A stretch of 64,000 nt of DNA from an uncultured Gammaproteobacteria bacterium (GCA_964565345.1 CAZMEQ010000002.1:7133-71132), one strand, 5' to 3'. Shown: positions 15,667 through 48,254, counted from the first letter of the stretch. Numbers and translations: made by a program. The notes: generated from the letters alone by a model not told the origin.

Positions 15667-17154
15667 CTAAGGGCGGATTAGCTGAGCTAATTCTCCGGTA
15701 CAGGTATCTGTTCGACTTATAGCGGTTTCAAAATTCTGTTCTGGATTATAAGTGCACTTCATAATTTTTCCAGCCCAGGCTGCCTCTGGATGTTTGGTAA
15801 AACGGGCAGAATAAACGCAATTACCTCCCTCCCTACCTCCGACACTGATTTCGTATGTAAGATTGTCAGCGAGCTTAAAAATCCCAATTACTGGTTCACA
15901 AGTTTCAAAAGAATCATAGAAGCAGGCTGTATTACCACAGGGGAATTCTGTAACAACCTTTTTATTATCAACCAAAACAGGAACCCCCAAAGACTCCATA
16001 ATACCCGCAAAATTGACGGCTGGAGCAGTGGCAACTGGCTCTATAACACCAAACTCAAAGCTATTTACCATCATAGCAAAAAGACCAGGGTAATTGGCTT
16101 CTTCATTCAATCCGATATTATAATTAATAATATAGACTCTAGTTCCATTAGCAACATAGGCAGTAAAACCATCAGGGCTTTCAATTACAGCGTTTTTCTT
16201 ATAGTTTTGGTATTTCTTTAGCTGAGTTGCGCTAATGCTTGGTGCTCTTTCTAAATACCAAGCATCCAATGTTTGTTCGGCTGGTTTTGTATCTACAAAA
16301 ATGTTTACGAACTCATTGCCCTTTGAGGTAAACATAACCTCTTTGGGATCATTTTCTTTTAAAGGACTAGCTAACCAAGTTGAGGGATATAACAATTTAT
16401 AACCATAGCTAGTATTCTCGTATGCTTTTGCAAAACCCTCTTCGTTTATTCTAGTACTACCGGCCTTAATTGGGCTGTAAAAATTTTTCATCTCATCGCC
16501 ATCGCGGTAAGTATCTTTGTCTGTGTCATTCATGTTTGGATCCGTACCGATCAATGCCTCCTCGGCATCAGTTAGCCCATCTTTATCTTTATCTAGGCTG
16601 GCCATTAAAGATAATGAAACATCACTTAATTTACTTGGATCAAAATTAATTTTTTCTTCGACTGCTGGTTGTTCCGTGGGAATGTCAACTGGTGGTGGGG
16701 TGTTCTCGTCCGGCTGAGCTGCCTCCTCTGTGGCAGGCTCTTCGACAACAGGCTGTTCTTCAACTACGGCCACCTGGTCTTCAACATTAACGTTTTGATT
16801 ATTGGCTGGTGCTTGATAGCTGGCATATAACAAGTAAGCCGAAATACCAACGACCAAAACTAAGACCACAATAATGGCGATGTTCATGATCTTTTTTTTG
16901 CCAGCTGGCGCACCTGAAGTTTGATAGGCCGGCGCCGTTGGTGCGGCTGACTGCATCACTGCTGGTTGTGGCCCTTTGGGGATATTAGCTGTTTTCCCGC
17001 CAGTATAATAGTCCATCGGCATAGTATGAATTTCTTCTGACCCAGACGTGGCTGTTGGCGCAGTTGGTGCGGGTGGCGCCACATTGGGAGTAGTCTGGGG
17101 CGCTGGGGTTGGTTGTACTGGTGGTGCTGATTGTGTATTTACATCATCAAACAT
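15667..17154 (-). CDS. Hypothetical exported protein, Pro/Thr/Ala-rich N-terminal region, with one DxDxDG calcium-binding motif
   Basis: 495 aa. Low-complexity PAPQTTPNVAPPAPTAP region, then a TM helix (IAIIVVLVLVVGISAYLL). DKDKDGLTDAEE. Confidence 0.5.
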   Translation of the reverse strand: MFDDVNTQSAPPVQPTPAPQTTPNVAPPAPTAPTATSGSEEIHTMPMDYYTGGKTANIPKGPQPAVMQSAAPTAPAYQTSGAPAGKKKIMNIAIIVVLVLVVGISAYLLYASYQAPANNQNVNVEDQVAVVEEQPVVEEPATEEAAQPDENTPPPVDIPTEQPAVEEKINFDPSKLSDVSLSLMASLDKDKDGLTDAEEALIGTDPNMNDTDKDTYRDGDEMKNFYSPIKAGSTRINEEGFAKAYENTSYGYKLLYPSTWLASPLKENDPKEVMFTSKGNEFVNIFVDTKPAEQTLDAWYLERAPSISATQLKKYQNYKKNAVIESPDGFTAYVANGTRVYIINYNIGLNEEANYPGLFAMMVNSFEFGVIEPVATAPAVNFAGIMESLGVPVLVDNKKVVTEFPCGNTACFYDSFETCEPVIGIFKLADNLTYEISVGGREGGNCVYSARFTKHPEAAWAGKIMKCTYNPEQNFETAISRTDTCTGELAQLIRP

Positions 17155-17165: not shown

Positions 17166-17753
17166 TTATTGATTTGTATTTAATTGTTGCAAAGCCTCTT
17201 CGAAATTAAGCAACTTCCCCGCCCCACGTGGGTTATAACCAGCCTTCACTTCTTCTCCATCTAAAAAACCATCACCGTCTGAATCAGAAGCAAGTGGATC
17301 GGTTAAAAAATTCTTAACTTCGTCATAATCAGATAAACCATCATTATCTGTATCGCTCTTGTTGGGGTTAGTTTGTAAGATAATTTCCTCTTCCCGAGGC
17401 AAACCATCATTATCATAATCATCAACAGTCTCGATGCGTGGAGCGACAAAAACCTCTTGTTCTGGAACCACCACGGCTTCTTCCACCTCAATTTGAGTTA
17501 TTATGTCGGGCACAACTTCTTGTTTTTGGAATAGCCCAAACTGTTTAATCATAATAAAAATTACTCCACACAATATGGCTACCATTAAAAACAAACCAAG
17601 GCCGATAAATATTTTTTTGTTACTGCTAGGTGGAGTAGAATTCGTTGGAATCGTTCCTAGCGCTGGATTATTGTACATTAAATTACCCGGCACATTCTTG
17701 GGTGCTTTGTCGACTGCTTGAAAAATATCTTCGATTTGGTTATCGGTAGGCAT
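17166..17753 (-). CDS. Hypothetical membrane-anchored protein with three thrombospondin-type-3-like DxDxDG repeats
   Basis: TM helix (IFIGLGLFLMVAILCGVIFIMI). DYDNDGLPREEE, DTDNDGLSDYDE and DSDGDGFLDGEE. Confidence 0.5.
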   Translation of the reverse strand: MPTDNQIEDIFQAVDKAPKNVPGNLMYNNPALGTIPTNSTPPSSNKKIFIGLGLFLMVAILCGVIFIMIKQFGLFQKQEVVPDIITQIEVEEAVVVPEQEVFVAPRIETVDDYDNDGLPREEEIILQTNPNKSDTDNDGLSDYDEVKNFLTDPLASDSDGDGFLDGEEVKAGYNPRGAGKLLNFEEALQQLNTNQ

Positions 17754-17754: not shown

Positions 17755-20700
17755 TTAGTAATTTAACTCATCTTCATCTGGTGGTGGAGGCGGTGGAAGC
17801 GTAGTGAACTTAGACATTAAATTCTTGAGCTTTGTTTCTAGTTCTGCTGTACTCCCCTGCATCCAAATTCCTTGATGATTTATATCATTTATACAAACAG
17901 AAGGTTCCGTGGTTGGCGCAATACAAACATTATTAACACAAGCATTAGAACAACTTGTTGAACTTACACAAGAAGCGCAATCAGTATTCGCCGTACACGC
18001 CTGTCCAGCACACAGGCCATGGTAACGATACCAAAAGTTAAAATTACTGACTCCTAACGCGCCTGTTTTAATATAAATAAAGTGTATCGGTATTCCTCTT
18101 GCATTAGCAGCTGTAATTGTCGCCGCTCTACTTTCGGGATTATAGGTATCATCAGCATCAGTGATAACAATGTAAACAGTTTGATCATAATCGACAGACG
18201 CTCCTGCTTTTGTCATCTTAGTATCATACACATTTAATGCATCCATAAAAACATTATCTATTCTCAAGGCCATATACGCATTCCCATCATAGATGTAAGG
18301 TGAACTACACACTGGGGCAGCACCACTACAAGTTCCCGAAGAACAAACGTTAGAAGAACATTGGTTGGCTTGTGTACAATAATTATACACACATCTTCCC
18401 GCCCCACCACAATTATAAGTTGCGTTACATGTTGCTATGTCTTGCGTTTTAACGCAGTTCTCCCAACCATTTGCACAATCCAACCAACCCAAGAAATGGT
18501 CAGCCTGACCGGCAGGAAAATATGCCCTTCTGGCATCTTCCGTCGGACTAGTTTTTGATGTCCCCAAGACGAAATAGGCATTATTGCCCATAACGTCACG
18601 GATTCCATCAATATGTGTGCAACCTGGGGCACCAGGAATACAACCAGCCGGAGTATCTATTCCATTAACAATTGAAAGAATTAAATCTTGATGAGCCATT
18701 TCTGGATCATGATCTTGCCATCTCATACTGCCGCTCGTATCAACAAAAAAGGCAAAAAGAACTTTTTTAGTTTCTTTATCATCATACTCACTTGAACAAG
18801 CTTTGTCACAAGTTGCCTCATTTGAACCATCTAGTTTACAGTAATCAATGTCGCCATCGCCGTCGTTATCCTGTCCGTCATTACATTGAGCTGGATAAAC
18901 CTCTGACTTGTGTGTCGACTTTTGTACACCATTCTCTTGGCAGCTATAATCTTTTTCTAACCAATTTACTGGCTGACCAGCGGCTTTATCGGCCAAGCAC
19001 TGTTGTTTTGTTTTCCCAATACCATTAATACAACAACCATCCCAATCACAACGCCCATCACCGTCATTATCAAGTCCATCTTTACAGTGATAAGGGTAAT
19101 CTTCTGTTTCGTCGCTAGAACTCGAGCAACCTTCATCATTTGGATAGTCGATTTTGCCATTTTTATCATTATCAATTCCATCCATACACTCGGGAGCGTC
19201 ACCTGGAGTCTCTGGAATTTCTTCTGGATCCTGCTTTATAGCATCCCAACCCACATTTGAAGTTTCTATGAGTGGAACATATTTATAATTTAACTGTGGT
19301 TGTTCGTAATAAACGCGTAACCGGTATTTAGTATAATCAAGATCATTTACTTCGTAAGTATAGGTTAAATTCTTCCCATAATCTTTATCAGTCTTATCCA
19401 ATATGGAATAATATCCATACAATGAATCGAATGTTTGAGTAGAACTGTTATAACAAGCTCTATTATCATAAACATTAGAACATTCAACACAGGACATCCC
19501 CGGAATAGCACATTGTTCGTCCGAACCACAGGCCAACGGATTAGAATAAACATCGGTACCGCATAAAACTGGCTTTGAAATATTATCACAAATACAATTA
19601 GTTTCTTGCTCCTGGCAGGCCGTTGTGGTTCCACTCAAGAAGCACTGTGGCTGTGGTGGGACATTATACAAAGCATTAATTGGATCTACCGGCATGTCGA
19701 AACCAATAGCCTTGGACAACTCATTTTTCCAGGAATCCCAAACGCTGTTGGAGAAGTGTCGTTGGAGAGTTCCAGATTCAAGTTGTGGCACATAACCGTT
19801 ATTTTGGGCTTTATAAACTTTTAGATATTCGTGCATCAACACAAAATCTTGTAAACGCTTTGTATCTCTAATTACCTTAAGTTTGTTAACATTTTCAGCA
19901 TTCAAAACATTCATGTTGAATTTTAAGAACTCAACCATTTGCCCAAAGATGTTTTGTGTGGCCGGATTAGAATTTTGTGAATAACTTAGAAGATAAATGT
20001 TGTTGTAAACATTGTTACCATTAACATTCGCGGCTGAAACATAAATTGTTCGTCCATCTTGAGTCCCGGCATAACAAAATTCACCAAAGCTGTCATACAA
20101 ACAATCGGATTTAGTTTCGGGCACAGAAGCCGCTGGATTTGGTGCGTACCGCTTATACCACAAACTCGGTGGCAACGCTTCTGGATTTTCGTATATGCGC
20201 AATGAGATTGCGTCTGGCACCATGTCGTTAGTACTCGGATAGTCCATATCATCCTTGCGGACAAAGAAATATTGGGCAAACAAAGCGGGGCTTTCCCACC
20301 CATCATTTGCCGAGGTGCATTTATGATCTTTAGTATCAATTAACCCGTTGCCATCATCGTCAACACCATTGCTACATTGATTTTCGACGTCGACATTCAA
20401 TTCTTGCCAACCTGAATTATCGCCATAGAAAATGCCTTTTTGTTTGGCGATATCTGTTATATTGTGGTGTTTAAATTTGAAACTTCCGCCATCTGGCAAA
20501 CATTGTGAAGTTATATTTACACAAGTACAACCTGGTTGATTCTTAACACAAGAAACCGGAGTACAATATTCAGCCGAATAATCAGCTGTACACTTGAAGG
20601 CGCCAATACCGTTGTTGGAATTAGTATCAGTATTAAAGGTCCAAGCAACGGCGAGACCTGTTTCTTCGTCAGTCTTTATAGCACTTGGTGTTTTTTCCCC

Positions 20701-23700
20701 ATGGAAAACTCTAAAATCATCAACATAACCACCAAAAGAGACTAAAGGAACGGTTGTTTTGCCTAAGCCACCAACATAGAGTTTGTCGTACATGCTAGGG
20801 GTGGCTATCACATCTAGCTTTTCGCTAGTACAAACGCAACCCGGAGTTCCACTATCGCAAATTGTTCCACCAGCTGTTTTACAATCTAAATTATCCCGTG
20901 GCCAAACAAACATAGACGCTGTTTCTTGCTCTGAAACATCTGCTTTTCCGTTAATCGATAAAATGGCGGATTTAGAATCCTTATTATAAGACAAAACTAT
21001 CTGATTAAAACCATTATTTAATAAACCAGCAGCATCGCGAATACCGCGATAAATAATGTTATTGCCATATTTAATCTTAAAGACAACTGATCGCTTAATA
21101 TTTTCGTCAGTACAGTTACAGGCAGACGGCTGTTTAGAGCCGTTTAACACCTCAAACCAACAAACTGGATCAACCGGCGTAGCACACCAACGACGCACAC
21201 CCAACTGAACATGATCTTGATTTGGGACAGAGGCTATATCTGTTGATAAATTTTTATAAAATAGACGGACATATCTGTCTTGTGGTAAATCATCGTTATA
21301 AACCCAAGCTGAAATGGTCCAAGATTCTTTGGCTGTTTCGCTAGCGCCGTCTCTATTTAAGAAGTCTAAGTTATCATTAGCGCCAGACACGACATAATCA
21401 TAATTACGATCAAAATAAACACCAAAGCGTGGTTTAGGATCAATCTCCGTGAACTCACCAGACATCAAACCAACAAGAGGTAAATCGTCGCTTAAAATTT
21501 TATCTTCACCAAAATCACGACAATAGAATAAACCAGCATTGAATTCTTTTTCAACTAAATAGCTTGGTTTTAATTGGCCATTGTTGGTTGTTTCAAGTCG
21601 TAAGTCAAATTTTTTACGAGTGGGTTGCCCGTCGACATATTGATACTCAGCCGGGATAGCCCGTCCATAACTATTATAAACATCGCCAAACCACGGGTTG
21701 TCGCAAATAAAGACTTTTATATTACCAAAGCCCGTAAACTTTGCACCTATCTGATTAAAATTCCCTTGGTCTTTTGCGCAAACACATGTTGCCCCACCAG
21801 CAACACATGGAGCACCAGTATCTTCATCAGTGCACAGTTGAGCGACAGAATCTTCGGTGATTGTTGCCGTAGCTTTAATTTGTCCCTGACCATTTTTAGT
21901 TTGAGTTGTAATAACGGCAGCATAAGCATTTGGATTTATTGTAGCAAGGGCTGTGTCTGTTGATTCCCAAGCCCAATTCCAACTATAAACACCTGGGACA
22001 GGGAAAATATTTTGTGCGCCACTACGTGGATAAGCATAATAGTTAAACTCTTGCTTTGACTGCATAACAAACAAATCACCAGGAGTTACAGCCACATTAT
22101 CTAAACGGCAGAGCTCAGATCCAGTGGTGAATGTGATTTTTTTAGGTAAATCAGTAAAACCAACATTACATTTATTCTTTAAATTTCTGAATAAAATTTT
22201 ATAGGTTGTATTAGGCAAAAGAAGTTCCGCCGGGATCCCCCTCATTTCGGTCCCATTACCAGTCACCTTTATATCGCTTGTCATTTCTGGACCACGGCAA
22301 TGTTTTAATGGACCAGCTAGACCTATCTTGAAAAGTAAATTTCTAACAAATTCAATAACCTTGTTATATGTTTTAACGAACCAGTTTTTACTAGAATTAG
22401 ATACAAACTCGTCGATTTCCCCAGATGATAATTCCCCATTGGCGCAAACTTCAGCATCATAGTAAAACAACATGCCACTCTTGCGTTCGCAGCCAACAAC
22501 CTTTGTTGCCCCGTCGCACTTGCTCATATCTGCCTTTCCGTCTGGCATGAGCTGTTCGCCTCCATCGGTACAAATACAACTGTCGCCGCCCTTTATCTCT
22601 CCCTTTACCGTTGAATATAAAACTATAATTGAATTACGACAAACATCCTGAGCACCGTTCGATGGCACCGAATACGAACTCCCTCCAAACAACTCGGTTT
22701 CAGCGGAACAAGAAGCAGTTACGGCCTCGTCATACACTGATTTAGGAACACGCAAAGCAATGTCCGTGTCCCCAGTCTTAGTTTGTGGCTGACCTTGAAT
22801 AGTTTCTAAAGTTTGAGCAATAATTTTTTTAGTCAAACTATAAGTCACTGGTGGTTTGTCAGGATTTTTAGAATCAATATCTGGCGTTAATCTTAATAAA
22901 ACGCTATAAACATTGAAGGTATTTTTTTCGGTATTAATAGTTGCTTGTTGATATGGGCTCCCCTTAGTACCTGTCCCCAAAGCCTCACAACCACTGTCTT
23001 CTCCTAATTCCTTAAGGCCATTACCACACAAAGAACCATATTCACTATCTGAACCTATGTTAGTACATTTATTGGTACACCAAGCTGGAAATTCGCAAAC
23101 ACAACCTGCTTCACCCACAGCACAAGCTTGTTGCATTTTGCCACCGGCAGGACAAGCTGTTACTTCGGCGCAAAAGCATTGGTTCCCCACTTTAGTACAA
23201 CCAGAATCCCCCGAATCACACTTAGCCATATTCTGAACCTGCGTTGGACATGTTACCTCTTTGAAACAGGCCGTTTTTTCACATTCCTCCATACTTAAAC
23301 CCGCACCCGTTAAGTCCTCAACAATGCTATTGCCACAGCAATTATTTTCGCCCGGATTAACGCAAGATGGAAAACCAGTTATCAAACATTTTTCATTACA
23401 TAAAGGATTGGCTGAATCGCATTCCTCGCCAGCATCGACAGTCCCATTACCGCAAATAGGAAGACCAGCTACAAATTTAACCTGAGCGCCCTCATTTAAA
23501 CATTTATTGTTTACCCCATCACCGGCTTTATTGTTGCCATCATCAACGTCTTCCCCTGGTTCTGGGACTTTATTCCCACAAGTATAGCCATCGGCTGTAC
23601 CAGTGTTCAAACAACCAGCTGAACAAGCTTTACTCTTAGATACCAAGACACAATTATCTTCGGGCTCTGCTGTGGTTGGGTCACATGCCTCTTTATCTTT

Positions 23701-26700
23701 ATCTAAATATTCTGCACCCAAATCACACTCTTCGTTACCATTTTTAACACCATTGCCACAGCAAGCTGAACTTCCAGACAATTCAGCGGGCGTGCAAGCC
23801 GCAAAATTATCCCAGAGACAAGTTTCAATGTTACAATTGGCGATTGGTGGCTCACACTCTTCGCCAGTTGAAATTGTTCCATCACCGCAAACAGCTCTAT
23901 ATTTTACACTTCCTTTCAACAAACAATTACTATTACAAGTTGTAGAAACCTGAGTATTATAAACATTATTAGTTATGGTCGCGAGTGGGGCTCCATCAGT
24001 TGCGCCATTATCGGGGTCATTTGTAGACCAGTCCCAGTCATAGTTGAGTGGGTTTAATAATTGGCCATTGGGCGAACACTTGTCTGGGGCACTGGCTGGT
24101 TGCACTGCGTAATTTATGGTCTCGCCTGGAACGCCAGCCACATAACCACCAGGAGTTACGCCAACTGAGTTAATGACGCACTGGTTAGGATCATTTTTTG
24201 TTTTAAAGACCCAGCTAAAACTATTAAATGCTGCCCCGGGGATAACACCCGTTGGATCATGGTGATAATTTAAGTCAATTAATTTTACCCCACTAATACT
24301 TTCCATATCTCCAGAAATTACAACGCGGTGGTAACGATTAGGCAACAAATTCATGTTATTTACCAAATCGATTGTTAACAAATTTTGACCGAAAGAAACG
24401 CCAGCAGCCGGCGCATACAAATAATTTAAATTCAAGGTAACACCAGGCAAAGCAGAAATTACGGTACACTCTTCAGTATCACAACTATAAACTTTTACAT
24501 TGTTTTGATTTTCCACCACAGACTCCTTCATCTTGGTGTTAAAGTTAACCCCCATTTGAGCGTTAATACAGGCTTCTTTACACTTTGGATAATAACTTGT
24601 AACACGTGGTTCACTAAAATTAATTTCTAAATCAGCTCCCTTCTCGTATAATAAGCTATCAGCTGGCACCACGGCGTTAGCCAATATCTGGACTAAATTA
24701 CTTTCGGTTGTTTCTAAATCAATAGTCGCATTACATTCACACCCCTCACTAAATTGAGAACAACCGCCAGGTTGGCAAACCAACTTATCCGTACGTGTAG
24801 CATAAACGCCAATGTCATTACGTCTTTCGGTTGCAGCTGTACAATATGGCAAAGCACCAGGAATCGGCTCAACTAAGCAGGCATAACCCTTAGCCTCGGC
24901 TTTTTGCGCATCTGCTGCATCTGGAACTGTCCAAACCCACGGCTTATCAATTAAACTTATTTCTTGACACTGGTACATGCCAGTAACCCAGTATTTTTGA
25001 ATTTGTTGTACTGAAGTTATTTTACCTTTAGAAGGCGTCATTAAAAAATTATCAGGGACACAGTCAGTGGCTTTAGTTTTAAAATTCCAAACATAGCTTT
25101 GCGTCATAGTTTTACCTGGAACACCTGGTGCAAAACTATTTGCCGCCACACCACCTGGGCCGCCAACTATTTCTACTTGATACCAAGAATTTGCAAATAA
25201 ATTATACTTATTGCCTGATTTTTGAATTATATTTGGATAGGCATTAGTTCCAGGAGCGCCACCACCAGCATAGCTGGCAAACAAAGAAAATGAAGTCATG
25301 TTTTCATTAGAAGCGGCACAAACACACCCCTCTGTTCCAGGCTCACACTTAGCGCCCAACTTTGTACAAACAATACTGGCCGGCTGAGTACCGACATCAC
25401 TGGGAGCGATATTAGATAATTGACTGGAAAGACAATTAGGTGCGGTACAAGCAGTAAAGTCACAAGGAGTCTCGCTATCCGAAGCAAGACAACGTCGAAT
25501 AATAACATTGCCATTCAAGCTTGCTTCGTTAATTAACATGTTAAAGGTTGCTGAAATCAACCCATTAGGACAAGCTAATTTATCCTCTTTTTTAGGCGAA
25601 GGCGATTGTCTATAACCAGCATCAGTAGCAAAATCAGTCACAAAACAATTTCGTTCAATAACAGCTGGAATTTTAGGGATTACTCCAGTACTCATAACCC
25701 AAGCATACTCAGACTCATGGGTTACAATAGTAGAGCCACAAACATCTTCTTTGGTTGTTTTCGTTCCTTTGTTTGTACAAACTCCATTAGAACAACAAAA
25801 TTGATCGGCCTTACAAGATTCGTCATTTTTACAAGCACCAACCTTAAATTCAATAGCATTGCTTGCAACTGAACAATCTCCTCCCTCCAAACGAACACCG
25901 CCCGTAATTGCCTCGGCCGGAACGCGTGCCTTTTCTATAGTTTCAGCGCCCCAAACAATATCCCCCGCTTCATTAACCGGAATACGGTTGTCCTTATCTT
26001 TTACAAAAGTTAAATTATATAAATCTTTAGTGCCAAAATTTTCACCTGTGACTGTAAATTCTGTAGCAGCCGGTCCATTGCTTGGAGATAAACCGCACAA
26101 ACCCGGACCCGGAGCATTAGTGTTTACCACAAAGAAACGGTTATTACTTGGTAAACTCTGGCTTGTAATAACCTGGACCCAATAATTACCAGGACTTAAA
26201 CTCATGGCCTGATCGCCCTGTAACTTATTTGCTTCGGGCACCTTAACTATAATCTCGGTATCAGACCAGCTTCCAGCACCACAAGCAAAATCAGCAATAA
26301 AAGCAGGCAAAGGATTTCCATCCTCATCAGTTGCCTCTACAAATCCACCCTCGCCATTGTCCTCCAAAAGTTTTAAAATTACTTGACCCTGGGCGTCGCC
26401 AAAATTACTGCCAGCAATACTGATCATTTGTTTTACCGGAGCACTTTCTACACAAGTACAATCTGGTGACCCCACGATACAACAACTGTCATCAGCCTTT
26501 TTGCATGTTTTTGGCGTAATTTCAGTGATCGTAGGTAGTGCTCCTGGGTTTCTTACCGTAAAAGAAACAGGATTACTCAAAACATTAAAACAACTACACC
26601 CTGGAGAGCCTTGCTCACAACTTTCAATACAAGATTCAGCGCCAGATTCACAACCGTCTTTAACTTTGGAACAACGCTCCCCCTTACCAACAACAACATC

Positions 26701-29097
26701 GTAAATACCTTTATCTATTTGTGGGACACGAGCCCCCTCTATCTTTGTATCAGACCATAAAATAGTAACAGCTGCTTCTGTATCACCAAAATAAACAGCA
26801 TCGTCTTCTGCTTTTAACTGCCCATCTGGAGGATTACCAAATTTTTCACCCGACAACTGAACCAAAGTCCCGGCGACACCGTCCGAAGGCACCAAAGGAG
26901 CGCACAACCCTGGATAACGTAAAATTGGGTTGCGCACAAAATCTCCCTGCCAACCTTCGTCATCATCTTCGGTATCATCGAATCTATTATTGCCTTCGTT
27001 ATCTTTATTTTTCGTAACAACCTTAATTGGACCTGTTCCTACACCTTCCGGGACTTTGACTATAATTTGATTATTAGTCCAAGCACCAGCAGAGTCACAA
27101 CCTAGTTCTGCAGGTAGAGTGTATTTTTGTCCTGCCTCAACACCCTCACTAAACAAAACTCGACTTTCATTAATATCATAAGAAGAAAATCCATTCCCAT
27201 ATATAGTCACAAAATTACCGTCAATGCCCTCTTTCGGATTCGCGTTATAAATTATCGGCAAAGACTTACAAACACCTGTTGTTTCACCTTCTTTAATTTC
27301 ACAATAACCATTGGCACAATCTGAATCCTGCGTACAAGGGCCCTCATCACATGCCCCACAAGCGGGATCACCACAAATTATTTCGCCAGCGTCGTCGCAA
27401 CAAAAATCTGGTCTTAAATAAACGTTTGTTTTCTTATTACTGCTATTACCATCAACATCATTCGCTTCTAGCATTAACCAATGTTCACCTAAAGCATACT
27501 TTTGTTTTCCGCCAGCATCCAAAACGTTAACTTCCCATGGCAACGAACCTGAATATATAAGAGGTGTTGAAGGCAAAGAAACTTCTCCTATTGCATCTTC
27601 CTGCCCAGTTACGTGATCAACATATAAAGAAATAAGTGCCAACCCAGCGTCATCTTCGGCTCCAAAAGGAATGTCCCTTGAATCTATGCTTTCCTCAGGG
27701 AATTTACACATGCTCTTATTAAGAGCATTAAAATATACTTTGGGTGGAGTAACATCGCATACATCCCCAGTAGTAAACTTTGCCGTACAAACACTGTCAG
27801 TGGCATTACAAATTAAAGGATCGCCATCAGCTGACGTTAAACCAGTGGCCCCCGCCTTTATGGTAATGGTATATTCAGTATCTTTTTTTAAGGCATATTT
27901 AGAAGAGTCAGCCTGGTCACACACTCCAGCTGGAACAAATTCCACTAACCGCCCACTATTTTTGACTACAAAAGTGCCGTCGACTGTACTAGGTACAGAC
28001 TCGACTATATCTAACCACATGTAATCAAACTTTAAACAGTTAGTGCCAGTACGTGCCCATTTAATATAAATCTTATCTCCGCCCAAACACGCAGCATCTA
28101 AATCGATTTCATTATTACCATTAGGCGGCAACCAATTTTCTTTTATTTTAACTAAGTCTGCTTCTGTTTTACCGCAAAAAATATCCATGGTGGCCTGATC
28201 GCCGGAAGATGAACTTTCGAATTTTAATTTACCTGATTTTTCTGTCGTAATTCCACTCACATCGTATTCAACCAACATCGGGGTTTCACCCAAATACGTA
28301 GCGCTACATATTACCCAATTAGGGTTAATTGTTCCATCATCTTCTTTTATTTGCGCTAAAATTTGGGCTCCATTACCTAGCACCTCCGTGACCTTAACTG
28401 GCTTAACTGTTATATTTTGATCGACCGTTTCTGCACTGCCAGATATTATAATATTGTTTTTTAATATTTCAGGAGTAGAAACAACCGCCTGGTTAAAAGA
28501 AATTCGCGGATGAACATTGATAATTTTTTGTTGGCCCACGGGAACTATTGCCTTTACCCTCAAATACGCCTCGCCATAAATATCAAGACCAGAATATTCT
28601 GTATAATGGGTGGCCGAAGTACAACCGGCATCTCCGGGAAAATCAATTGTGCCATCTTTATCATTGTCTTTACCATCAGAACAAGCATAATAATATGTGT
28701 CATCGGTCACTGCCCCTTGTAACTTACTTATGACAAATGAAACTATCGCATATGATAATAAGATAATGGCTAAACCAATGGCCGCATTGATTAAGTATTT
28801 TTTAGCTTTATCAACCTTGTCTGCTTCACCACCCGAAGTCATGTATAAATAGCCCCCATAAAGGGTTAAACAAAGAGCAATAACTCCCAAAAAACCTAAA
28901 ATTACTTTTATAATCTTTCCAATAACAACTTTTAAATCCGCCTTTTGTAAGCCAGCGCCCGATGCACCCGCAACAGTATCTAACCCAGCAGTAATATCAT
29001 CGTTAGCTAAGACAGAGGCACCAAGCGAAAAACAAAAACTCAAAACAATAAAGAAAGCGACAACAAAAATTAAATTACGAAAAAACTTTTTAGACAT
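17755..29097 (-). CDS. Giant (3780 aa) Cys-rich cell-surface protein. N-terminal signal followed by a pilin-like two-helix hydrophobic hairpin. Also Myxococcus-type Cys-rich CGNG..GEECD repeats, Cys-flanked DxDxDG calcium-binding repeats, a LamG/ConA-like segment and a C-terminal vWA (MIDAS DTSGS) domain.
   Basis: Single uninterrupted ORF. N-terminus ...VIGKIIKVILGFLGVIALCLTLYGGYLYMTSGGEADKVDKAKKYLINAAIGLAIILLSYAIV. Repeats CGDGTISTGEECE, CGNGVKNGNEECD and CGNGTVDAGEECD. CKDGLDNDGDGRCDWDGC. FAFFVDTSGSMRW. Ends in PPPPPPDEDELNY. Confidence 0.8.
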   Translation of the reverse strand: MSKKFFRNLIFVVAFFIVLSFCFSLGASVLANDDITAGLDTVAGASGAGLQKADLKVVIGKIIKVILGFLGVIALCLTLYGGYLYMTSGGEADKVDKAKKYLINAAIGLAIILLSYAIVSFVISKLQGAVTDDTYYYACSDGKDNDKDGTIDFPGDAGCTSATHYTEYSGLDIYGEAYLRVKAIVPVGQQKIINVHPRISFNQAVVSTPEILKNNIIISGSAETVDQNITVKPVKVTEVLGNGAQILAQIKEDDGTINPNWVICSATYLGETPMLVEYDVSGITTEKSGKLKFESSSSGDQATMDIFCGKTEADLVKIKENWLPPNGNNEIDLDAACLGGDKIYIKWARTGTNCLKFDYMWLDIVESVPSTVDGTFVVKNSGRLVEFVPAGVCDQADSSKYALKKDTEYTITIKAGATGLTSADGDPLICNATDSVCTAKFTTGDVCDVTPPKVYFNALNKSMCKFPEESIDSRDIPFGAEDDAGLALISLYVDHVTGQEDAIGEVSLPSTPLIYSGSLPWEVNVLDAGGKQKYALGEHWLMLEANDVDGNSSNKKTNVYLRPDFCCDDAGEIICGDPACGACDEGPCTQDSDCANGYCEIKEGETTGVCKSLPIIYNANPKEGIDGNFVTIYGNGFSSYDINESRVLFSEGVEAGQKYTLPAELGCDSAGAWTNNQIIVKVPEGVGTGPIKVVTKNKDNEGNNRFDDTEDDDEGWQGDFVRNPILRYPGLCAPLVPSDGVAGTLVQLSGEKFGNPPDGQLKAEDDAVYFGDTEAAVTILWSDTKIEGARVPQIDKGIYDVVVGKGERCSKVKDGCESGAESCIESCEQGSPGCSCFNVLSNPVSFTVRNPGALPTITEITPKTCKKADDSCCIVGSPDCTCVESAPVKQMISIAGSNFGDAQGQVILKLLEDNGEGGFVEATDEDGNPLPAFIADFACGAGSWSDTEIIVKVPEANKLQGDQAMSLSPGNYWVQVITSQSLPSNNRFFVVNTNAPGPGLCGLSPSNGPAATEFTVTGENFGTKDLYNLTFVKDKDNRIPVNEAGDIVWGAETIEKARVPAEAITGGVRLEGGDCSVASNAIEFKVGACKNDESCKADQFCCSNGVCTNKGTKTTKEDVCGSTIVTHESEYAWVMSTGVIPKIPAVIERNCFVTDFATDAGYRQSPSPKKEDKLACPNGLISATFNMLINEASLNGNVIIRRCLASDSETPCDFTACTAPNCLSSQLSNIAPSDVGTQPASIVCTKLGAKCEPGTEGCVCAASNENMTSFSLFASYAGGGAPGTNAYPNIIQKSGNKYNLFANSWYQVEIVGGPGGVAANSFAPGVPGKTMTQSYVWNFKTKATDCVPDNFLMTPSKGKITSVQQIQKYWVTGMYQCQEISLIDKPWVWTVPDAADAQKAEAKGYACLVEPIPGALPYCTAATERRNDIGVYATRTDKLVCQPGGCSQFSEGCECNATIDLETTESNLVQILANAVVPADSLLYEKGADLEINFSEPRVTSYYPKCKEACINAQMGVNFNTKMKESVVENQNNVKVYSCDTEECTVISALPGVTLNLNYLYAPAAGVSFGQNLLTIDLVNNMNLLPNRYHRVVISGDMESISGVKLIDLNYHHDPTGVIPGAAFNSFSWVFKTKNDPNQCVINSVGVTPGGYVAGVPGETINYAVQPASAPDKCSPNGQLLNPLNYDWDWSTNDPDNGATDGAPLATITNNVYNTQVSTTCNSNCLLKGSVKYRAVCGDGTISTGEECEPPIANCNIETCLWDNFAACTPAELSGSSACCGNGVKNGNEECDLGAEYLDKDKEACDPTTAEPEDNCVLVSKSKACSAGCLNTGTADGYTCGNKVPEPGEDVDDGNNKAGDGVNNKCLNEGAQVKFVAGLPICGNGTVDAGEECDSANPLCNEKCLITGFPSCVNPGENNCCGNSIVEDLTGAGLSMEECEKTACFKEVTCPTQVQNMAKCDSGDSGCTKVGNQCFCAEVTACPAGGKMQQACAVGEAGCVCEFPAWCTNKCTNIGSDSEYGSLCGNGLKELGEDSGCEALGTGTKGSPYQQATINTEKNTFNVYSVLLRLTPDIDSKNPDKPPVTYSLTKKIIAQTLETIQGQPQTKTGDTDIALRVPKSVYDEAVTASCSAETELFGGSSYSVPSNGAQDVCRNSIIVLYSTVKGEIKGGDSCICTDGGEQLMPDGKADMSKCDGATKVVGCERKSGMLFYYDAEVCANGELSSGEIDEFVSNSSKNWFVKTYNKVIEFVRNLLFKIGLAGPLKHCRGPEMTSDIKVTGNGTEMRGIPAELLLPNTTYKILFRNLKNKCNVGFTDLPKKITFTTGSELCRLDNVAVTPGDLFVMQSKQEFNYYAYPRSGAQNIFPVPGVYSWNWAWESTDTALATINPNAYAAVITTQTKNGQGQIKATATITEDSVAQLCTDEDTGAPCVAGGATCVCAKDQGNFNQIGAKFTGFGNIKVFICDNPWFGDVYNSYGRAIPAEYQYVDGQPTRKKFDLRLETTNNGQLKPSYLVEKEFNAGLFYCRDFGEDKILSDDLPLVGLMSGEFTEIDPKPRFGVYFDRNYDYVVSGANDNLDFLNRDGASETAKESWTISAWVYNDDLPQDRYVRLFYKNLSTDIASVPNQDHVQLGVRRWCATPVDPVCWFEVLNGSKQPSACNCTDENIKRSVVFKIKYGNNIIYRGIRDAAGLLNNGFNQIVLSYNKDSKSAILSINGKADVSEQETASMFVWPRDNLDCKTAGGTICDSGTPGCVCTSEKLDVIATPSMYDKLYVGGLGKTTVPLVSFGGYVDDFRVFHGEKTPSAIKTDEETGLAVAWTFNTDTNSNNGIGAFKCTADYSAEYCTPVSCVKNQPGCTCVNITSQCLPDGGSFKFKHHNITDIAKQKGIFYGDNSGWQELNVDVENQCSNGVDDDGNGLIDTKDHKCTSANDGWESPALFAQYFFVRKDDMDYPSTNDMVPDAISLRIYENPEALPPSLWYKRYAPNPAASVPETKSDCLYDSFGEFCYAGTQDGRTIYVSAANVNGNNVYNNIYLLSYSQNSNPATQNIFGQMVEFLKFNMNVLNAENVNKLKVIRDTKRLQDFVLMHEYLKVYKAQNNGYVPQLESGTLQRHFSNSVWDSWKNELSKAIGFDMPVDPINALYNVPPQPQCFLSGTTTACQEQETNCICDNISKPVLCGTDVYSNPLACGSDEQCAIPGMSCVECSNVYDNRACYNSSTQTFDSLYGYYSILDKTDKDYGKNLTYTYEVNDLDYTKYRLRVYYEQPQLNYKYVPLIETSNVGWDAIKQDPEEIPETPGDAPECMDGIDNDKNGKIDYPNDEGCSSSSDETEDYPYHCKDGLDNDGDGRCDWDGCCINGIGKTKQQCLADKAAGQPVNWLEKDYSCQENGVQKSTHKSEVYPAQCNDGQDNDGDGDIDYCKLDGSNEATCDKACSSEYDDKETKKVLFAFFVDTSGSMRWQDHDPEMAHQDLILSIVNGIDTPAGCIPGAPGCTHIDGIRDVMGNNAYFVLGTSKTSPTEDARRAYFPAGQADHFLGWLDCANGWENCVKTQDIATCNATYNCGGAGRCVYNYCTQANQCSSNVCSSGTCSGAAPVCSSPYIYDGNAYMALRIDNVFMDALNVYDTKMTKAGASVDYDQTVYIVITDADDTYNPESRAATITAANARGIPIHFIYIKTGALGVSNFNFWYRYHGLCAGQACTANTDCASCVSSTSCSNACVNNVCIAPTTEPSVCINDINHQGIWMQGSTAELETKLKNLMSKFTTLPPPPPPDEDELNY
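22980..23920 (-). repeat. Block of Myxococcus-type cysteine-rich repeats (CGNGxxExGEECD) inside the giant protein
   Basis: At least five units, CGNGLKELGEDSGCE, CGNSIVEDL...MEECE, CGNGTVDAGEECD, CGNGVKNGNEECD and CGDGTISTGEECE, located from the reverse complement of the nucleotide sequence. Confidence 0.6.
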
Positions 29098-29112: not shown

Positions 29113-31266
29113 TTATCTTTCGATATTGCTCAAAACACATTCATTTAGATCTTCGGGGCTGGCTGGATTTATCCGAGTCGGCTTATAATCACCCTCCGAT
29201 GGACAACAGGAAACACCATAAGTTTCAGCTGTAATATCATCACCATCCGTATCAGTGCAGTCTAAATTGCTTTCATTCTGAACAGTTGATGTTTTTTGAG
29301 CATCTAAATTTCGGCTCGGCGTAAAACAATTTTGGCGCATATCACGGACTTGCGCCTTAATAACAGGCATATAAACTGGACCATCTGGAAGAGGTTCTCC
29401 CGGAGCCGGCTCTGGTACCTTGGCAAAAAGACCATGAGCCATATTTATCGTATTCATTAACGTACTTGGTGGGGCCGGAATTTCTAAATTCGGATCAAAC
29501 CAACTGCTGTAATTTTGACCATAAAGATAGACTTCGGTATCAACCGTAGCTGGATCTAACCCTTCATTAAAAATAGCTCTAATAGGAACATCAATCTCAA
29601 CATTTTCTGAAACATTTTTAGGTATTAATTCAACAATAGCTGGTGGAGTTAAATCTATGGCACTTCCCACACCAAAAGACCAGTCATCATAATTATCATC
29701 GGGCTGACCATCCGCCTTTCCATCATTATTACCATCAAGCGCATTACCCGCTAAATCAGCAATACCAGTTCCCAGTAAAGCGATTTCAGCCTCTTCATCA
29801 ATTTCGGCAGACTTAACCAATCCTTCTAAAATCTTATCAGCTGGTAAACAAAAAGCTTTTTCTCCGCAACTGTTTTCTTCTACCCCCTCACACTCCATTG
29901 AAGATATAAATTGAATTGTTCGGTATTGATTAATCCCGGTTAACCATTTACCAGGGACATACGAAGTAGTACAAGTCCCCACTTTTTCACCTGCGGCTAA
30001 TTTTAACTGCGCCTCGTTCACATCGCTTGTCGCATTACAAGCTGTTTGGTCTGTTCCGCCCAATAAAGGTAAAACTGGCTCATTAAAATTAACAACCACT
30101 ATTTGATTACGGAAAACTTTTGGCACAGCGCAATCGGCGTCCACACCAGGAGTACACAAGCTACTATCTGTTACTTTATCATCAATTCCAGCTTGATTAA
30201 CAGGAATAACGGAGACTATTTTCGGCGGTGTCAGATCAACGGCTGTACTGGTAGTGAAGCGCCAATAATAATCCCGAGGGTTGCTAAAAACAGACATCCC
30301 TGCCGGAGATAAACGCTTTATGCCATTGGCTCCACTCAACATATGAACCACGTAAGTTACGTTTTCTTCTGAACTTCCCAAATAATTAGACGAGCCAACC
30401 CCATTACCATAGGGATTAAAAACAACGGAACGTCTATCCTCTGTTATTAAAACAAAACCAGGAACAATGTCTTCAAAGTTCTCTGGGTCACTAATTTGTG
30501 CGTTTAAACAATCCGAGGGTGGAGTTCCATCTGGCCAATCAGGCATTTTATCGCAACGATATAACTTAAACGTATTCTTATTAATTGGACCACAAACAGA
30601 CGAATCGGCTGGACAGTCATCATTGGTACATTTAGTAATCGCTTCTGGACAACCTGTATAAGCCGAACTTGAGTCCATATCAATAAAAGATTTTTCTTCA
30701 ATTGGCATTTTAAATGTAACCACGACCATGGTATTGCGTGGTACGCCGGTTTGCTCCGGATATGGTGAATGCCCCGACAGAATTTCACCAAAAGCATTAC
30801 CCGAAAGACTATAACCCAAACCCTTGGGAATAGTAGAAGTAATAGTATAAGTACCGGTATCCTTATTTAGTAGGGCATTTAAAATAAAGGAAACAATCGA
30901 ATAGGCCGCAAAAATGATGATTAAACCAATGGTCGCATTAGTCATCCACTGTTTGGCCGTTTGCACCTTGGTCGGATCGCCTCCAGAAGTCATATAAACA
31001 TAGCCAGCGTAGAGGATAATAACAAAGAAAACGATCCCCAAGATACCAAGGAAAACCTTAATAATTTTCCCTATGGTTAAACGGATATCGCTCTTTACCA
31101 AACCAGCTTGAGTCCCAACTGTGTCCAACCCCTCCATAGCATCATCGGCCGCGGCCTGAACCGGTGAACTTAAAACTGGCATAAATAAAATAACTGCCAA
31201 CATAAACAACAAACAACTGGCAGTTATCCAAAAAATAAACTGATTTTGATTTTTTTTGACAAGCAT
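29113..31266 (-). CDS. Large (717 aa) exported Cys-containing protein. Its N-terminus is paralogous to that of the giant protein (signal plus pilin-like hairpin).
   Basis: ...TIGKIIKVFLGILGIVFFVIILYAGYVYMTSGGDPTKVQTAKQWMTNATIGLIIIFAAYSIVSF closely parallels the giant-protein N-terminus. Also GLDTV in both. DGNNDGKADGQPDDNYDDW. Confidence 0.7.
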   Translation of the reverse strand: MLVKKNQNQFIFWITASCLLFMLAVILFMPVLSSPVQAAADDAMEGLDTVGTQAGLVKSDIRLTIGKIIKVFLGILGIVFFVIILYAGYVYMTSGGDPTKVQTAKQWMTNATIGLIIIFAAYSIVSFILNALLNKDTGTYTITSTIPKGLGYSLSGNAFGEILSGHSPYPEQTGVPRNTMVVVTFKMPIEEKSFIDMDSSSAYTGCPEAITKCTNDDCPADSSVCGPINKNTFKLYRCDKMPDWPDGTPPSDCLNAQISDPENFEDIVPGFVLITEDRRSVVFNPYGNGVGSSNYLGSSEENVTYVVHMLSGANGIKRLSPAGMSVFSNPRDYYWRFTTSTAVDLTPPKIVSVIPVNQAGIDDKVTDSSLCTPGVDADCAVPKVFRNQIVVVNFNEPVLPLLGGTDQTACNATSDVNEAQLKLAAGEKVGTCTTSYVPGKWLTGINQYRTIQFISSMECEGVEENSCGEKAFCLPADKILEGLVKSAEIDEEAEIALLGTGIADLAGNALDGNNDGKADGQPDDNYDDWSFGVGSAIDLTPPAIVELIPKNVSENVEIDVPIRAIFNEGLDPATVDTEVYLYGQNYSSWFDPNLEIPAPPSTLMNTINMAHGLFAKVPEPAPGEPLPDGPVYMPVIKAQVRDMRQNCFTPSRNLDAQKTSTVQNESNLDCTDTDGDDITAETYGVSCCPSEGDYKPTRINPASPEDLNECVLSNIER

Positions 31267-33538: not shown

Positions 33539-34159
33539 CTATTGCTTATCTTCGGTAACAAAAGGAGTAGCTTCGTATTTAACGCCAGAAAATATTTTGG
33601 CACGCCAAACTGGCCAACCTCGCAACCAAACTCGTCCAATTATCAAATCTTTAAAAACTGGGCCAAAACTTCGGGAGTCCAGACTTTCCCCCCTATTATC
33701 GCCCAGTACATAATACTCATCTGGACCCAATGTCCAAACATTGTTGCCAGTTGTTTCTATGTCCGGCAAATAAGCGTTTTCATCTAGAATAAACTTTTTC
33801 CCTTCTTTGGGATATATGTAAACTTTTTTGTCTTTTATTTCAACTTTTTCACCAGGCAGACCAACTACTCTTTTAATAAAATATTGTGATGGTACTTTAG
33901 GATACCTAAAAACAATAATATCACCGCGTTCCGGCTCCCCAAATCGATAGGATATTTCATCAACGATTAAATATTCATGATCATAAAAACTTGGCTCCAT
34001 CGACGCCCCTTTAACATAAAAGGGCTGGATAACAAAATATCGTACCGGGATAATTATAGCCAATGAGATTGTGACAACTTTTAAAAGGTCCCAAATAAAC
34101 TGAATAACTTTTTGGCCGAAACTTAAGTCTTCTTCGTCGTAATTATTATATTCATTCAT
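33539..34159 (-). CDS. lepB: Signal peptidase I (S26 family)
   Basis: GASMEPSF (catalytic Ser box). GDNRGESLDSR box. N-terminal TM. Confidence 0.85.
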   Translation of the reverse strand: MNEYNNYDEEDLSFGQKVIQFIWDLLKVVTISLAIIIPVRYFVIQPFYVKGASMEPSFYDHEYLIVDEISYRFGEPERGDIIVFRYPKVPSQYFIKRVVGLPGEKVEIKDKKVYIYPKEGKKFILDENAYLPDIETTGNNVWTLGPDEYYVLGDNRGESLDSRSFGPVFKDLIIGRVWLRGWPVWRAKIFSGVKYEATPFVTEDKQ

Positions 34160-42694: not shown

Positions 42695-43016
42695 GTGTAG
42701 GGATCTGGATAGAAACCCCAATAACATTGTTGATGATAGGGTAATCACAGATACCCTACAGCGACAGTATAGCGAAATATTTTCAATAAAACAACAAAGC
42801 CGCCTTGCCATACTTCGAGAGCCTCAGTACGACAAAGCAGCTTATTCATAATAATCTTTAAATAAAACGAAAACTCCTAGACCATAGAGCCCAGGAGTTT
42901 TCAATTGAAGTTTCACCTATCATCAACAACATCAGTATAGCAAATTTTTCTCTTGCTGTCAATAGAAAGCCAAAAATAACTTGCATTTTAGAGCGATTGT
43001 GGTTAAATACAATTAT

Positions 43017-46138: not shown

Positions 46139-48254
46139 TATGAAACACAAAGGTTTATTAATGCCACTGCTTTTAACGTTTGTTCTGTCTTTATTTTTTG
46201 TCCTGACAGGCAATGTCCAGGACACTTTTGCCACAGATAATAAATACTGGGCCACAACTTACTACCAGGCAACCATAACAAACAGCCAGGGGAACAGCAT
46301 GATCATATGCTGTGTTGGTAATTACATGGCCTGTCTAAATTCAAAAGCAACACAACAACCCTGCCCAGATGCTTCAGGTGGCAAGTGTGACACATTCTCA
46401 GAATTAGAAACATTCAACCCCGCTGCCGCCATAGTTGTTAGAAACCAATGTTACCAGGAATCATATTGTTTCCAAAAATTAGACAACCCCGGCTGGGATG
46501 GGCAAGATGAATGCAAACTTTCTGCTCCAGATAATTGCACCTCCAACTCACAATGTTCATCGACTGAATATTGCGACCTAACATCACAACCCAAAGCCTG
46601 TTTCCCCAAAAAAGCTAACGGTAAAATGTGTACCAATGATGATGAATGTTTATACAAAAATTGCCAAAAGCCAACAGCTGGGGGAGTTGGAACTGGTTTT
46701 TGCAATAGTCCTGAATGTAAAACCTGGACCTATTCAGCTTGGTCCCCCTGTGTCGCAGGCGAACAAGCCAGAACCAAGTCAAACCCAATGCCTTTGGGGT
46801 GTACTGGTGGCACCTCGGAACCGCTCATAAGAGCTTGTGGGCCTGGCACAACTTGCACCTGGACCTACTCACCTTGGTCGCCCGCCACTTGCACTGCCGG
46901 GCAAAAACAAAATCGCACAAAATTTAACCCACAACCAGATGGTTGTGACCAAATAAACAGTCCTGCTGAACCCTTACAACAAGATTGTCTTGTAATACCA
47001 AATTGCAATACCTTCGAATACAGTGAATGGGGCGCCTGTGTAGATGGACAAAAAACACGTACGATTAACGAAGCTTCAAAACAACCCACTGGATGTAATG
47101 TTGTAAATCCAACTCTGACCCAAGCCTGCGGGGCTGGTATAGTCGATTGTACTCCAGAATCTTTTACCTACTCAGCCTGGAGTTCCTGTGTAGCTGGTAA
47201 AAAAACTAGAACACTCGTGTCCCGTAATCCCGCTAACTGCGTCGGCGATCCACCCGGTCCCTTTCAACAAACATGCACTCTAACTTGTACTGCCTGGACC
47301 TATTCACCATGGAGCGAATGTGGCAAAGCACCTGCTGGAATAACCGCTGAACCCAATAAACAAAAGCGAACAATTTTAACTTCTACTCCGCAAGGTTGCA
47401 CGGGTGGAGCATCTGGACCTCTAGAAAAAGGCTGTGCATCAGCCCCGGCCGCGACCTCTTGTACCCCAAATCCATGTCCCAAAGGACAATATTGTAACGG
47501 GACTGCTTGTGTTGCTGGTGTTCCAAAGGGTCAAGCCTGTGCTGGAGACTTTCAATGCGCTGCCGGTTTTTGCTACAATAGCGTTTGTAGCGATGCCCTC
47601 TCTGATGATTGCGCCGCACTAAGTGGCGATCCAACTGGTTGCGAAACACAACCCAACTGTATGATAGGAGAAGGTACAACTTGTGTGGCTCGAGCCACCT
47701 ATGGCATGGCTTGTACTGGCTCAGGACAAGGAAATTGTTCTGAGGGCGAGTGTATCCCATTCTTAGGGAAATCCGAATGTCGAAAAACTTGTACTAAACA
47801 CAGCGACTGTCCTGAAGGAAATTATTGTATGGATACTAATACTGCAAAGTTTTGTAAGGTTCGCGAAAAAGAAGGTGCTGTCTGTAACGCTGATGGAGAC
47901 GTTTGTATATCAGGTATTTGCGAATCAGGTAAATGTAAAGGCAACGCACCACCCACGGTTGATGCTAGCGGTGGAATCGTTAAAGCCCAATCAGAATTTG
48001 AGCTGCCTAATTTCTTACGAGTAGACGACCCGAATGTAGTAGTAGGTAGAATTATTAAATATATTATTGGCTTTGCCGGGACTATTGCGCTATTAACCTT
48101 TATGTATGGCGGTACTCTTTGGCTAATTTCCGCCGGCAGAACTGATTATGTGACTAAAGGGAAAAATTATATGATTTGGTCCGCCATTGGTCTGGCCATT
48201 GTCTTTGGATCATACGTTCTTGTCTCTCAGGTCCTGGCTTTATTCGGTCAATAA
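46139..48254 (+). CDS. Secreted Cys-rich protein with five thrombospondin-type-1-like repeats (W-x-Y-S-x-W-S-x-C ... RT) and a C-terminal pilin-like two-helix hydrophobic hairpin
   Basis: Signal peptide MKHKGLLMPLLLTFVLSLFFVLTG. Repeats KTWTYSAWSPCVAGEQARTKS, CTWTYSPWSPATCTAGQKQNRTK, NTFEYSEWGACVDGQKTRT, ESFTYSAWSSCVAGKKTRT and TAWTYSPWSECG. C-terminus VVGRIIKYIIGFAGTIALLTFMYGGTLWLISAGRTDYVTKGKNYMIWSAIGLAIVFGSYVLVS. The ORF track starts at 46101. Confidence 0.6.
46690..47420 (+). repeat. Five tandem TSP1-like WSxWS repeats (about 45 aa each) within the secreted protein
   Basis: Periodic W..YS.WS.C ... K/Q.RT motif in the translation. Confidence 0.55.

Follow-up and report, generated by a model that had tools for sequence, protein, structure and literature searches.

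VirB2-type pilin hairpins fused to large predicted surface proteins in a Patescibacterium

Analysis of a 64,000-nucleotide (nt) stretch of contig CAZMEQ010000002.1, hereafter the window, identified three large proteins, all predicted to be secreted, that each carry one copy of a hydrophobic two-helix hairpin of about 70 amino acids (aa). Judged by profile scores, the three hairpins are members of PF18895, the VirB2/TrbC-like pilin family of Patescibacteria, and in each of the three proteins the hairpin is the most conserved part. The host is an ultra-small bacterium of the Patescibacteria, or candidate phyla radiation (CPR). We consider that these are probably pilin-anchored surface proteins in which the hairpin still makes pilin-type contacts, in other words 'modular' pilins. 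The domain family was known beforehand and has its name in databases, so the element is not of a new kind. What is new, relative to the literature on type IV secretion systems (T4SSs) that we searched, is the cargo-bearing architecture; in the related ABY1-type genomes examined it is retained together with its gene order.

The three copies were found on the strands and at the positions given in a preliminary description of this DNA, two near an N-terminus and one at a C-terminus. The stretch flagged there, 28720-28950 on the minus strand, encodes residues 50-126 of a giant protein of 3780 aa (17755..29097, minus), in which a complete N-terminal pilin unit is followed by a Cys-rich ectodomain of ~3650 aa. 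Its hairpin (copy 1; 28720..28926, minus; aa 58-126) consists of a helix, the loop TSGGEADKVDKAKK and a second helix. The gene for a 717-aa protein (29113..31266, minus) precedes the giant gene by 15 nt and encodes copy 2 (30874..31083, minus; aa 62-131). The third gene is on the plus strand (46140..48254) and encodes 704 aa; its open reading frame (ORF) opens with a TTG at 46101, and the ATG at 46140 is the probable start since it sits just past a relA/spoT stop codon (46134). Copy 3 (48033..48251, plus) forms the last 73 aa of this protein (aa 645-717 of the ORF), the chain ending ~5 residues past helix 2.

Two-helix hydrophobic hairpins are common, and a fold search with this one returned generic hairpins only. 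The likeness might thus reflect composition without true homology, or the hairpins might belong to type IV pilus (T4P) pilins; we regard both as extremely improbable. BLASTP with composition adjustment aligned the 717-aa protein with the giant (expectation value E=3e-33, 53% identity over 94 aa) and with the C-terminal copy (E=3e-12, 33% identity over 70 aa). A hidden Markov model (HMM) built from 60 stand-alone pilins only, and from no window sequence, scored 109.5 bits on the giant, 105.5 on the 717-aa protein and 69.5 on the third. By comparison, 1000 composition-preserving shuffles of each hairpin averaged -0.2 bits and peaked at 13.6 (12.8 for copy 1), which shows that a match of 70-110 bits is not an artefact of hydrophobicity. 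Four glycines (G77, G88, G96 and G114) are invariant in both the fused family and the free pilins (63 and 66 sequences), which have in common the consensus LG.LG...YGGF.WMT.GG...KV..AKK....IGL.II..AYAI. Taken together, the shuffles, the BLASTP alignments and the four invariant glycines exclude a chance or compositional similarity of three hydrophobic helix pairs. A T4P pilin identity is excluded by the lack of a prepilin motif of the G|FTLIE type: a regular-expression search of the three N-termini for the class III motif G|(F/M)TLxE gave no match.

All three proteins pass the PF18895 (T4SS_pilin) gathering cut-off of 26.6 bits, with 42.7 bits for the 717-aa protein, 31.8 for the N-terminal 166 aa of the giant (26.7 at full length) and 27.5 for the third, so the TrbC/VirB2-style pilin identity proposed in the preliminary description holds. 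With TrbC itself (PF04956, cut-off 27.9 bits), the 717-aa protein (22.4 bits; 26.7 for its N-terminus alone) and the third copy (15.3) fall below threshold, and the giant is not among the matches listed. The same profile matches 32 of 63 aligned family members at E<=0.01 (best E=2.4e-8) and exceeds its cut-off in a fused relative (P0255, 34.6 bits). Against NCBIfam NF045849, two of the window copies scored 33.9 and 32.5 bits over 70 of the 80 profile positions, the third not being among the matches listed; as the curated cut-off is 40 bits, the window copies are not members. This sub-threshold match, to proteins of Mycoplasma integrative and conjugative elements (ICEs), was the only one in the direction of 'Gram-positive T4SS pilins', with which the hairpin had also been grouped. 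The reviews consulted state that Gram-positive T4SSs lack VirB2, and we do not retain that comparison.

The claim that the unit is widespread in CPR bacteria was confirmed. A whole-library HMM search returned 56,201 cluster representatives at E<=1e-3, the best-scoring of which include N-fused, C-fused, tandem and stand-alone forms. The closest relatives by sequence are Patescibacterial proteins of 110-175 aa, several of them named 'pilin' by their sources; the best 120 word-index matches are all <=200 aa long, and identity of the hairpin to free array pilins reaches 59-61%. HMMs built from the three window copies and from 63 family members, run on six-frame ORFs of at least 40 aa, detected neither a free pilin nor a fourth hairpin copy in the 64 kb. 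An AlphaFold2 (AF2) model of the unit in the 717-aa protein comprises the signal helix, a short helix and two longer helices (61-92 and 98-134) with a 5-residue loop between them, with a predicted local distance difference test score (pLDDT) above 90 in the hairpin.

Two other forms of the family deserve mention. In 104 of the 149 best-scoring cluster representatives the polypeptide has 2-10 tandem hairpins (up to 17 matched stretches in raw HMM output). Read-through was rejected as the origin of P0122, P0123, P0127 and P0133, which are real poly-hairpin proteins since neither an internal Met nor a signal peptide occurs between their repeats; it was accepted for one exception, P0121, where two adjacent C-fused genes are read as one. 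Free pilins with hairpins ~59% identical to that of the giant (P0015) occur in arrays of 7-8 tandem pilin genes (L009/L010 9144-12139; L011 7102-10848). These lie directly downstream of NTP_transferase and SBP_bac_1 genes and upstream of pgi-yebC-ruvC, a context conserved between two different samples, and no virB4 gene was found <=10 kb from them.

Hydrophobic segments number exactly three in each window protein: one is the signal peptide, and the others are the helices of the hairpin. With the leader removed, this leaves the hairpin as the sole possible membrane anchor. The signal peptide of the giant (29005..29097, minus; aa 1-31) ends in ...SVLA before NDD, and that of the 717-aa protein (31153..31266, minus; aa 1-38) in ...PVQA before AADD. 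Cleavage is predicted from the residues at -3 and -1 (V-x-A, V-x-A and, in the third protein, T-x-A, as read from the sequence), which fit signal peptidase I. None of the three proteins has the LPXTG sorting signal by which sortase-anchored Gram-positive adhesins are recognised. The N-terminal copies align to positions 5-129 of the 134-position stand-alone-pilin profile, signal peptide included, and the giant and the 717-aa protein are therefore complete pilins (signal peptide, outside segment and hairpin) extended at the C-terminus. In the third protein the signal peptide comes first, then the cargo, and then the mature pilin, that is, the hairpin.

These features suggest how the proteins may be arranged in the envelope. 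The Sec signal peptide would put the N-terminus outside; helix 1, a short basic cytoplasmic loop and helix 2 would then bring the chain back out, so that both ends of the hairpin face outward. VirB2-type propilins have periplasmic termini and a cytoplasmic loop, a topology that the proposed out-out hairpin would match. Since both of its ends would point outward, the unit would fit before an ectodomain, after one or in tandem with the rest of the topology unchanged, which offers a simple reason for its reuse at either terminus and in repeats. The hairpin would hold Ig-like, IPT or Cys-rich ectodomains of adhesin or surface-layer (S-layer) type on the outside of the cytoplasmic membrane, with a flexible linker as the tether in the 717-aa protein. 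Signal-peptide cleavage, out-out topology and surface display are, jointly, very probable on the strength of these sequence features. Beyond this, the hairpin would contact other pilin units and/or VirB4/VirB6-type machinery, and the proteins would be 'modular' VirB2-type pilins, acting as sparse cargo-bearing subunits in a pilin assembly.

The main rival reading is a static anchor. On that account the hairpin stays in the membrane and roots an S-layer-like or adhesin coat of a monoderm cell, in the manner of the transmembrane stalk of archaeal S-layer proteins; it has no pilus role, and its conservation stems from helix packing or intramembrane oligomerisation. We hold this to be unlikely, in view of how the hairpin is conserved. 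Identity between the 717-aa protein and its orthologue is 76% in the hairpin, 60% in the ectodomain and 71% in the signal peptide. The corresponding values are 87%, 55% and 42% for the giant and its orthologue P0148, and 81%, 30% and 26% for the third protein and its orthologue P0154. When 65 homologues of the 717-aa protein are compared, identity averages 0.51 in the hairpin, 0.29 in the ectodomain and 0.27 in the signal peptide, and column entropy is 1.3-1.4 bits in the hairpin, 1.7-2.9 in the ectodomain and 2.5 over aa 1-60. The signal peptide, being equally hydrophobic, provides an internal control for composition. A static anchor would be expected to drift like the signal-peptide core (0.27 identity, 2.6 bits), whereas the hairpin shows 0.51 and 1.4 bits. 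Conservation of helix 2 is also without helical periodicity and thus not limited to one face, and the fused proteins keep the pilin unit entire, down to its outside GL...GL...D segment; neither is what static anchoring would predict.

Comparison of hairpin cores pointed the same way. Identity is 0.47 among free pilins, 0.46 between free and Ig-fused copies and 0.50 between free copies and those of the giants, in a sample chosen by similarity to the window and so biased to close relatives; fused hairpins have thus not diverged from free pilins, which again speaks against a static anchor. C-fused hairpins of the third-protein type form a separate subgroup (0.66 within, 0.36 to others).

The fusions are old. 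The closest reference genome is that of Parcubacteria group bacterium GW2011_GWA2_40_23 (class ABY1 in GTDB), whose orthologue is 60% identical to the 717-aa protein. A search with the ectodomain of the 717-aa protein alone recovered 71 homologues, down to 24% identity, whose named sources are Falkowbacteria, Magasanikbacteria, Uhrbacteria, Komeilibacteria and unclassified Parcubacteria. Nearly all the full-length ones have PF18895 and the Ig-like domain Big_5 together. Recent shuffling of a mobile cassette or ectodomain was rejected for this family, as almost every full-length homologue retains the pilin unit.

Gene order is equally stable. The order lepB-hisS-S21-yqeY-[pilin/Ig]-[pilin/giant] recurs on lake metagenome contigs and on a 757-kb contig. 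It recurs in the distant GCA_040960375.1 as well, where yqeY is missing, the second protein is only 1865 aa long, and the pair is followed by collagen-like and TSP3 genes. In GW2011_GWA2_40_23, the fourth related place examined, the sizes of the ORFs upstream of the orthologue, which are unannotated, fit the same order. Orthologues of the giant range from 1865 to 4039 aa with the same N-terminal unit, and the orthologue of the third gene (P0154, 739 aa) has the same dprA-folC-topA-relA-relA context. This conserved synteny indicates old chromosomal genes and not recently shuffled cassettes. The term 'movable' anchor, used in the preliminary description, is apt for the family as a whole, with its N-fused, C-fused and tandem members; it does not suit the window, where the fusions are old and stable.

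The cargo differs between the three proteins, with Cys contents of 2.6-8.5% across the ectodomains. In the 717-aa protein the hairpin gives way to a disordered linker (aa 134-150) leading into a beta-rich chain (~aa 160-650), which Pfam identifies as bacterial immunoglobulin (Ig)-like Big_5 domains, and then into a low-confidence Cys-containing tail. The AF2 model, based on 66 homologues, has a pLDDT of 81.9 and a predicted TM-score (pTM) of 0.74. Its top Foldseek match is the S-layer protein SbsC (4uic, E=6.7e-6, probability 0.98), followed by bacterial Ig domains of LdtMt2 and by CopC. That the best fold match is an S-layer protein favours a static anchor; the global TM-score against SbsC is low (0.13), which means that only the type of domain and its chaining are common to the two. 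The ectodomain of the giant has 182 Cys, IPT/TIG domains (54.9 bits), weak Big_5 and Laminin_G_3 matches and one DxSxS motif at aa 3453, near the C-terminus. The third protein contains 8.5% Cys, Dickkopf_N-like knots and five W-x-Y-S-x-W-S-x-C repeats. These repeats had been labelled thrombospondin type 1 (TSP1), a label we could not maintain: neither the whole protein nor the isolated repeats matched TSP_1 (PF00090) at E<=1, and no sequence in the PDB matched the repeats at E<=10. Overall, the ectodomains look like surface or adhesion modules.

The repeat of the third protein (window 46600-47450) has four Cys in ~45-50 aa and no Pfam model. It recurs in bacterial proteins without a pilin unit (P0341-P0376), some of which have cytochrome c or SprB-repeat domains. 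It may constitute an undescribed extracellular repeat family.

With PF04956 and PF18895, Quinonero-Coronel et al. (2025; PMC12102498) detected VirB2-like pilins in 1,948 assemblies, among them 441 pilin arrays of 2-11 genes, and reported VirB4 in 2,417 of 3,035 genomes. Their Tables S1 and S3 list VirB4 for three relatives, including GW2011_GWA2_40_23 (GCA_000996245.1), for which Table S3 also lists TrsD, VirB3, type IV coupling proteins (T4CPs) and one T_virB2 hit. The fused orthologue in that genome (731 aa; L008 10001-12196) scores 35.4 bits with PF18895 at 86% profile coverage. It is not among the rows listed for GCA_000996245.1 in Table S3, and these rows include none for PF18895. Going by the rows listed, surveys of this type may count too few of the large fused members. 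A T4SS and its pilin array are essential in Candidatus Southlakia epibionticum, a cultured Saccharibacterium (Wang et al. 2023; PMC10633639). The fused hairpins retain the pilin signature in full, and under strong constraint; taken with VirB4 in three relatives, this leads us to expect, on balance, that they still make pilin-type contacts.

Several observations weigh against a pilin role. No T4SS gene was found in the 64-kb window, where reading of ORF translations, and Pfam scans that covered the large secreted proteins and the ORFs at 48-64 kb, gave only housekeeping, surface-protein and uncharacterised genes. Nor was one found <=10 kb from the fused genes in the related loci examined. A housekeeping neighbourhood of this kind, whose synteny is old and conserved and which lacks T4SS genes close by, is what a static anchor would lead one to expect. 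The 3650-aa cargo of the giant is too large for a regular pilus subunit, another point for static anchoring: such a cargo on every subunit would be sterically incompatible with a homopolymer, so that only a sparse or terminal place would be open to it. The needs of intramembrane packing or insertion could also lie behind the conservation of the hairpin, proteins with 2-10 tandem hairpins resemble polytopic membrane proteins, and neither profile nor fold search recovered a solved VirB2 or TraA structure. A pilus built from PF18895 proteins has yet to be demonstrated in any Patescibacterium, and reviews, including one of 2025, treat a pilus of these pilins only as a possibility. Arrays of free pilins are themselves often far from virB4, which counts in favour of a static anchor.

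A third fate for the proteins would be export. VirB4 dislocates VirB2 from the membrane, and a VirB4-type dislocase could in principle extract the fused proteins through the hairpin, the ectodomain being released or delivered to a host as an effector. In support of such a tag, Patescibacterial T4SSs are without a relaxase and have been proposed to move proteins (PMC12102498, PMC10633639). We nevertheless judge it very unlikely: the signal peptides are ordinary Sec signal peptides, the ectodomains are adhesin- or S-layer-like repeats and not enzymes or toxins, the genes have no linkage to T4SS genes, and no processing site is evident between hairpin and cargo. The earlier suggestion of effectors accordingly found no support.

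For the proteins as modular pilins, then, strength of expectation falls as the claim becomes more specific. Co-assembly with free pilins, or incorporation into a filament, is putative, and we would at present bet somewhat against it. We are more doubtful still of the fullest version, in which these would be the first cargo-bearing conjugative-type pilins, fused subunits that show adhesins of 60-400 kDa for host attachment, inserted into a filament or membrane platform which the Patescibacterial T4SS-like machine would assemble from free VirB2-like pilins. If it were true, the expansion of PF18895 into free arrays and N-fused, C-fused and tandem forms would be one combinatorial surface-display system specific to epibionts.

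The remainder of the window is largely housekeeping, with ftsZ, ftsA, prfB, nrdD, hisS, lepB, der, pth, dprA, folC, topA and two relA/spoT genes; those between 3.5 and 46 kb were named from their translations and from Pfam tables of syntenic loci rather than from Pfam scans of the window copies. The lepB gene (33539-34159) heads a conserved run on the minus strand, lepB-hisS-rpsU-yqeY-pilin/Ig-pilin/giant, that extends to 15667, with small secreted TSP3_bac genes (17166..17753 and 15667..17154) after the giant gene. LepB processes VirB2-type leaders, and the linkage of lepB to the fused pilin genes may or may not be meaningful. Two tandem genes of the RelA/SpoT family, at 42981-44657 (558 aa) and 44683-46134 (483 aa), lie directly upstream of the C-fused pilin gene, and the same pair stands ahead of the orthologue of the third protein in four other contigs. 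At the left edge, a gene that runs off the window (3-2606, minus) encodes a secreted Cys-rich protein of >868 aa, with no Pfam match and no pilin unit in its visible part; it is followed by a gene for a 288-aa TSP3-like protein (2557..3423).

Three islands of high GC content (58-69%, against 38% for the window) were observed at 48350-50050, 52600-53450 and 62000-64000. The first starts ~100 nt past the stop codon of the C-fused pilin gene, and the second is flanked by a tRNA-Leu gene (52475) and two tRNA-Met genes (53624 and 53725). Plausible ORFs in the islands encode a 344-aa protein (weak SPFH match), a 214-aa transmembrane protein, a 288-aa coiled-coil protein and proteins of 303 and 246 aa. 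None of these ORFs matched a family above threshold, and Rfam found nothing in the islands, which look like foreign cassettes or an assembly chimera.

Position relative to the replication origin was also considered. parAB genes are typically origin-proximal; parB and parA (50706-52362, confirmed by Pfam scan) and ksgA/rsmA (3579-4379) are both in the window, yet no T4SS gene is there. Cumulative GC skew falls monotonically along the window, so no switch at an origin or terminus falls inside it. In the survey cited above (PMC12102498), ksgA is often near Patescibacterial virB4, and virB4 is often close to dnaA and the replication origin.

What VirB2-like pilins build in these bacteria is a matter of some consequence, as it is still an open question whether the essential pilins form a pilus, and what its role would be (PMC10633639, PMC12857230). 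Conserved fusions of a pilin unit to an ectodomain provide natural handles on it: antibodies or tags directed at the Ig-like cargo could locate the unit in the membrane, in an S-layer-like coat or in a filament. A conserved and probably core class of the family may, moreover, escape surveys in which VirB2 is taken to be a small protein. Fused or giant VirB2-type pilins are not mentioned in the T4SS literature searched, which yielded only papers on free pilins.

Among known systems, the closest to the window proteins are the free PF18895 pilins of Patescibacteria, whose unit is likewise made up of signal peptide, outside segment and helix-loop-helix, with the same consensus and glycines, and which come from the same phylum. 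They are stand-alone proteins of ~110-175 aa, frequently encoded in arrays of 2-11 genes and in many cases close to virB4. Unlike them, the window proteins have 3780, 717 and 704 aa with cargo of 580-3650 aa, and are encoded at a housekeeping locus with no free pilin within 64 kb; their size places them outside the free-pilin norm as a difference in architecture, not as a failure of domain membership. With VirB2, TrbC and TraA of diderm T4SSs they have in common a long leader, cleaved there and predicted to be so here, two hydrophobic helices, a short basic loop and, by prediction, termini outside. They differ in scoring below the PF04956 cut-off and in the lack of VirB4 or VirB6 genes in the window. 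Diderm conjugative pilins are small, are encoded in T4SS operons and polymerise with phospholipid into a pilus, and are cyclised in some systems; we know of none with a large fused ectodomain. The Mbov_0395/MMCAP2_0565 proteins (NF045849) are likewise small hairpin proteins associated with T4SSs of monoderm cells, but are borne on Mycoplasma ICEs, and the window copies fall below their cut-off. SbsC and SbsA of Geobacillus are chains of Big_5 Ig-like domains like the ectodomain of the 717-aa protein; SbsC binds a secondary cell-wall polymer through its N-terminus, whereas the 717-aa protein would be tethered by a membrane hairpin. The nearest parallel in concept is found in the modular T4P pilins, such as PilB and PilC of Streptococcus sanguinis, in which a pilin module that polymerises is joined to an adhesive module displayed on the filament. 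The pilin fold and the machinery are unrelated in that case: T4P pilins have one N-terminal helix and a signal peptide of class III, whose motif the window proteins lack. The idea that the two systems have in common is that of a pilin unit bearing a large surface module.

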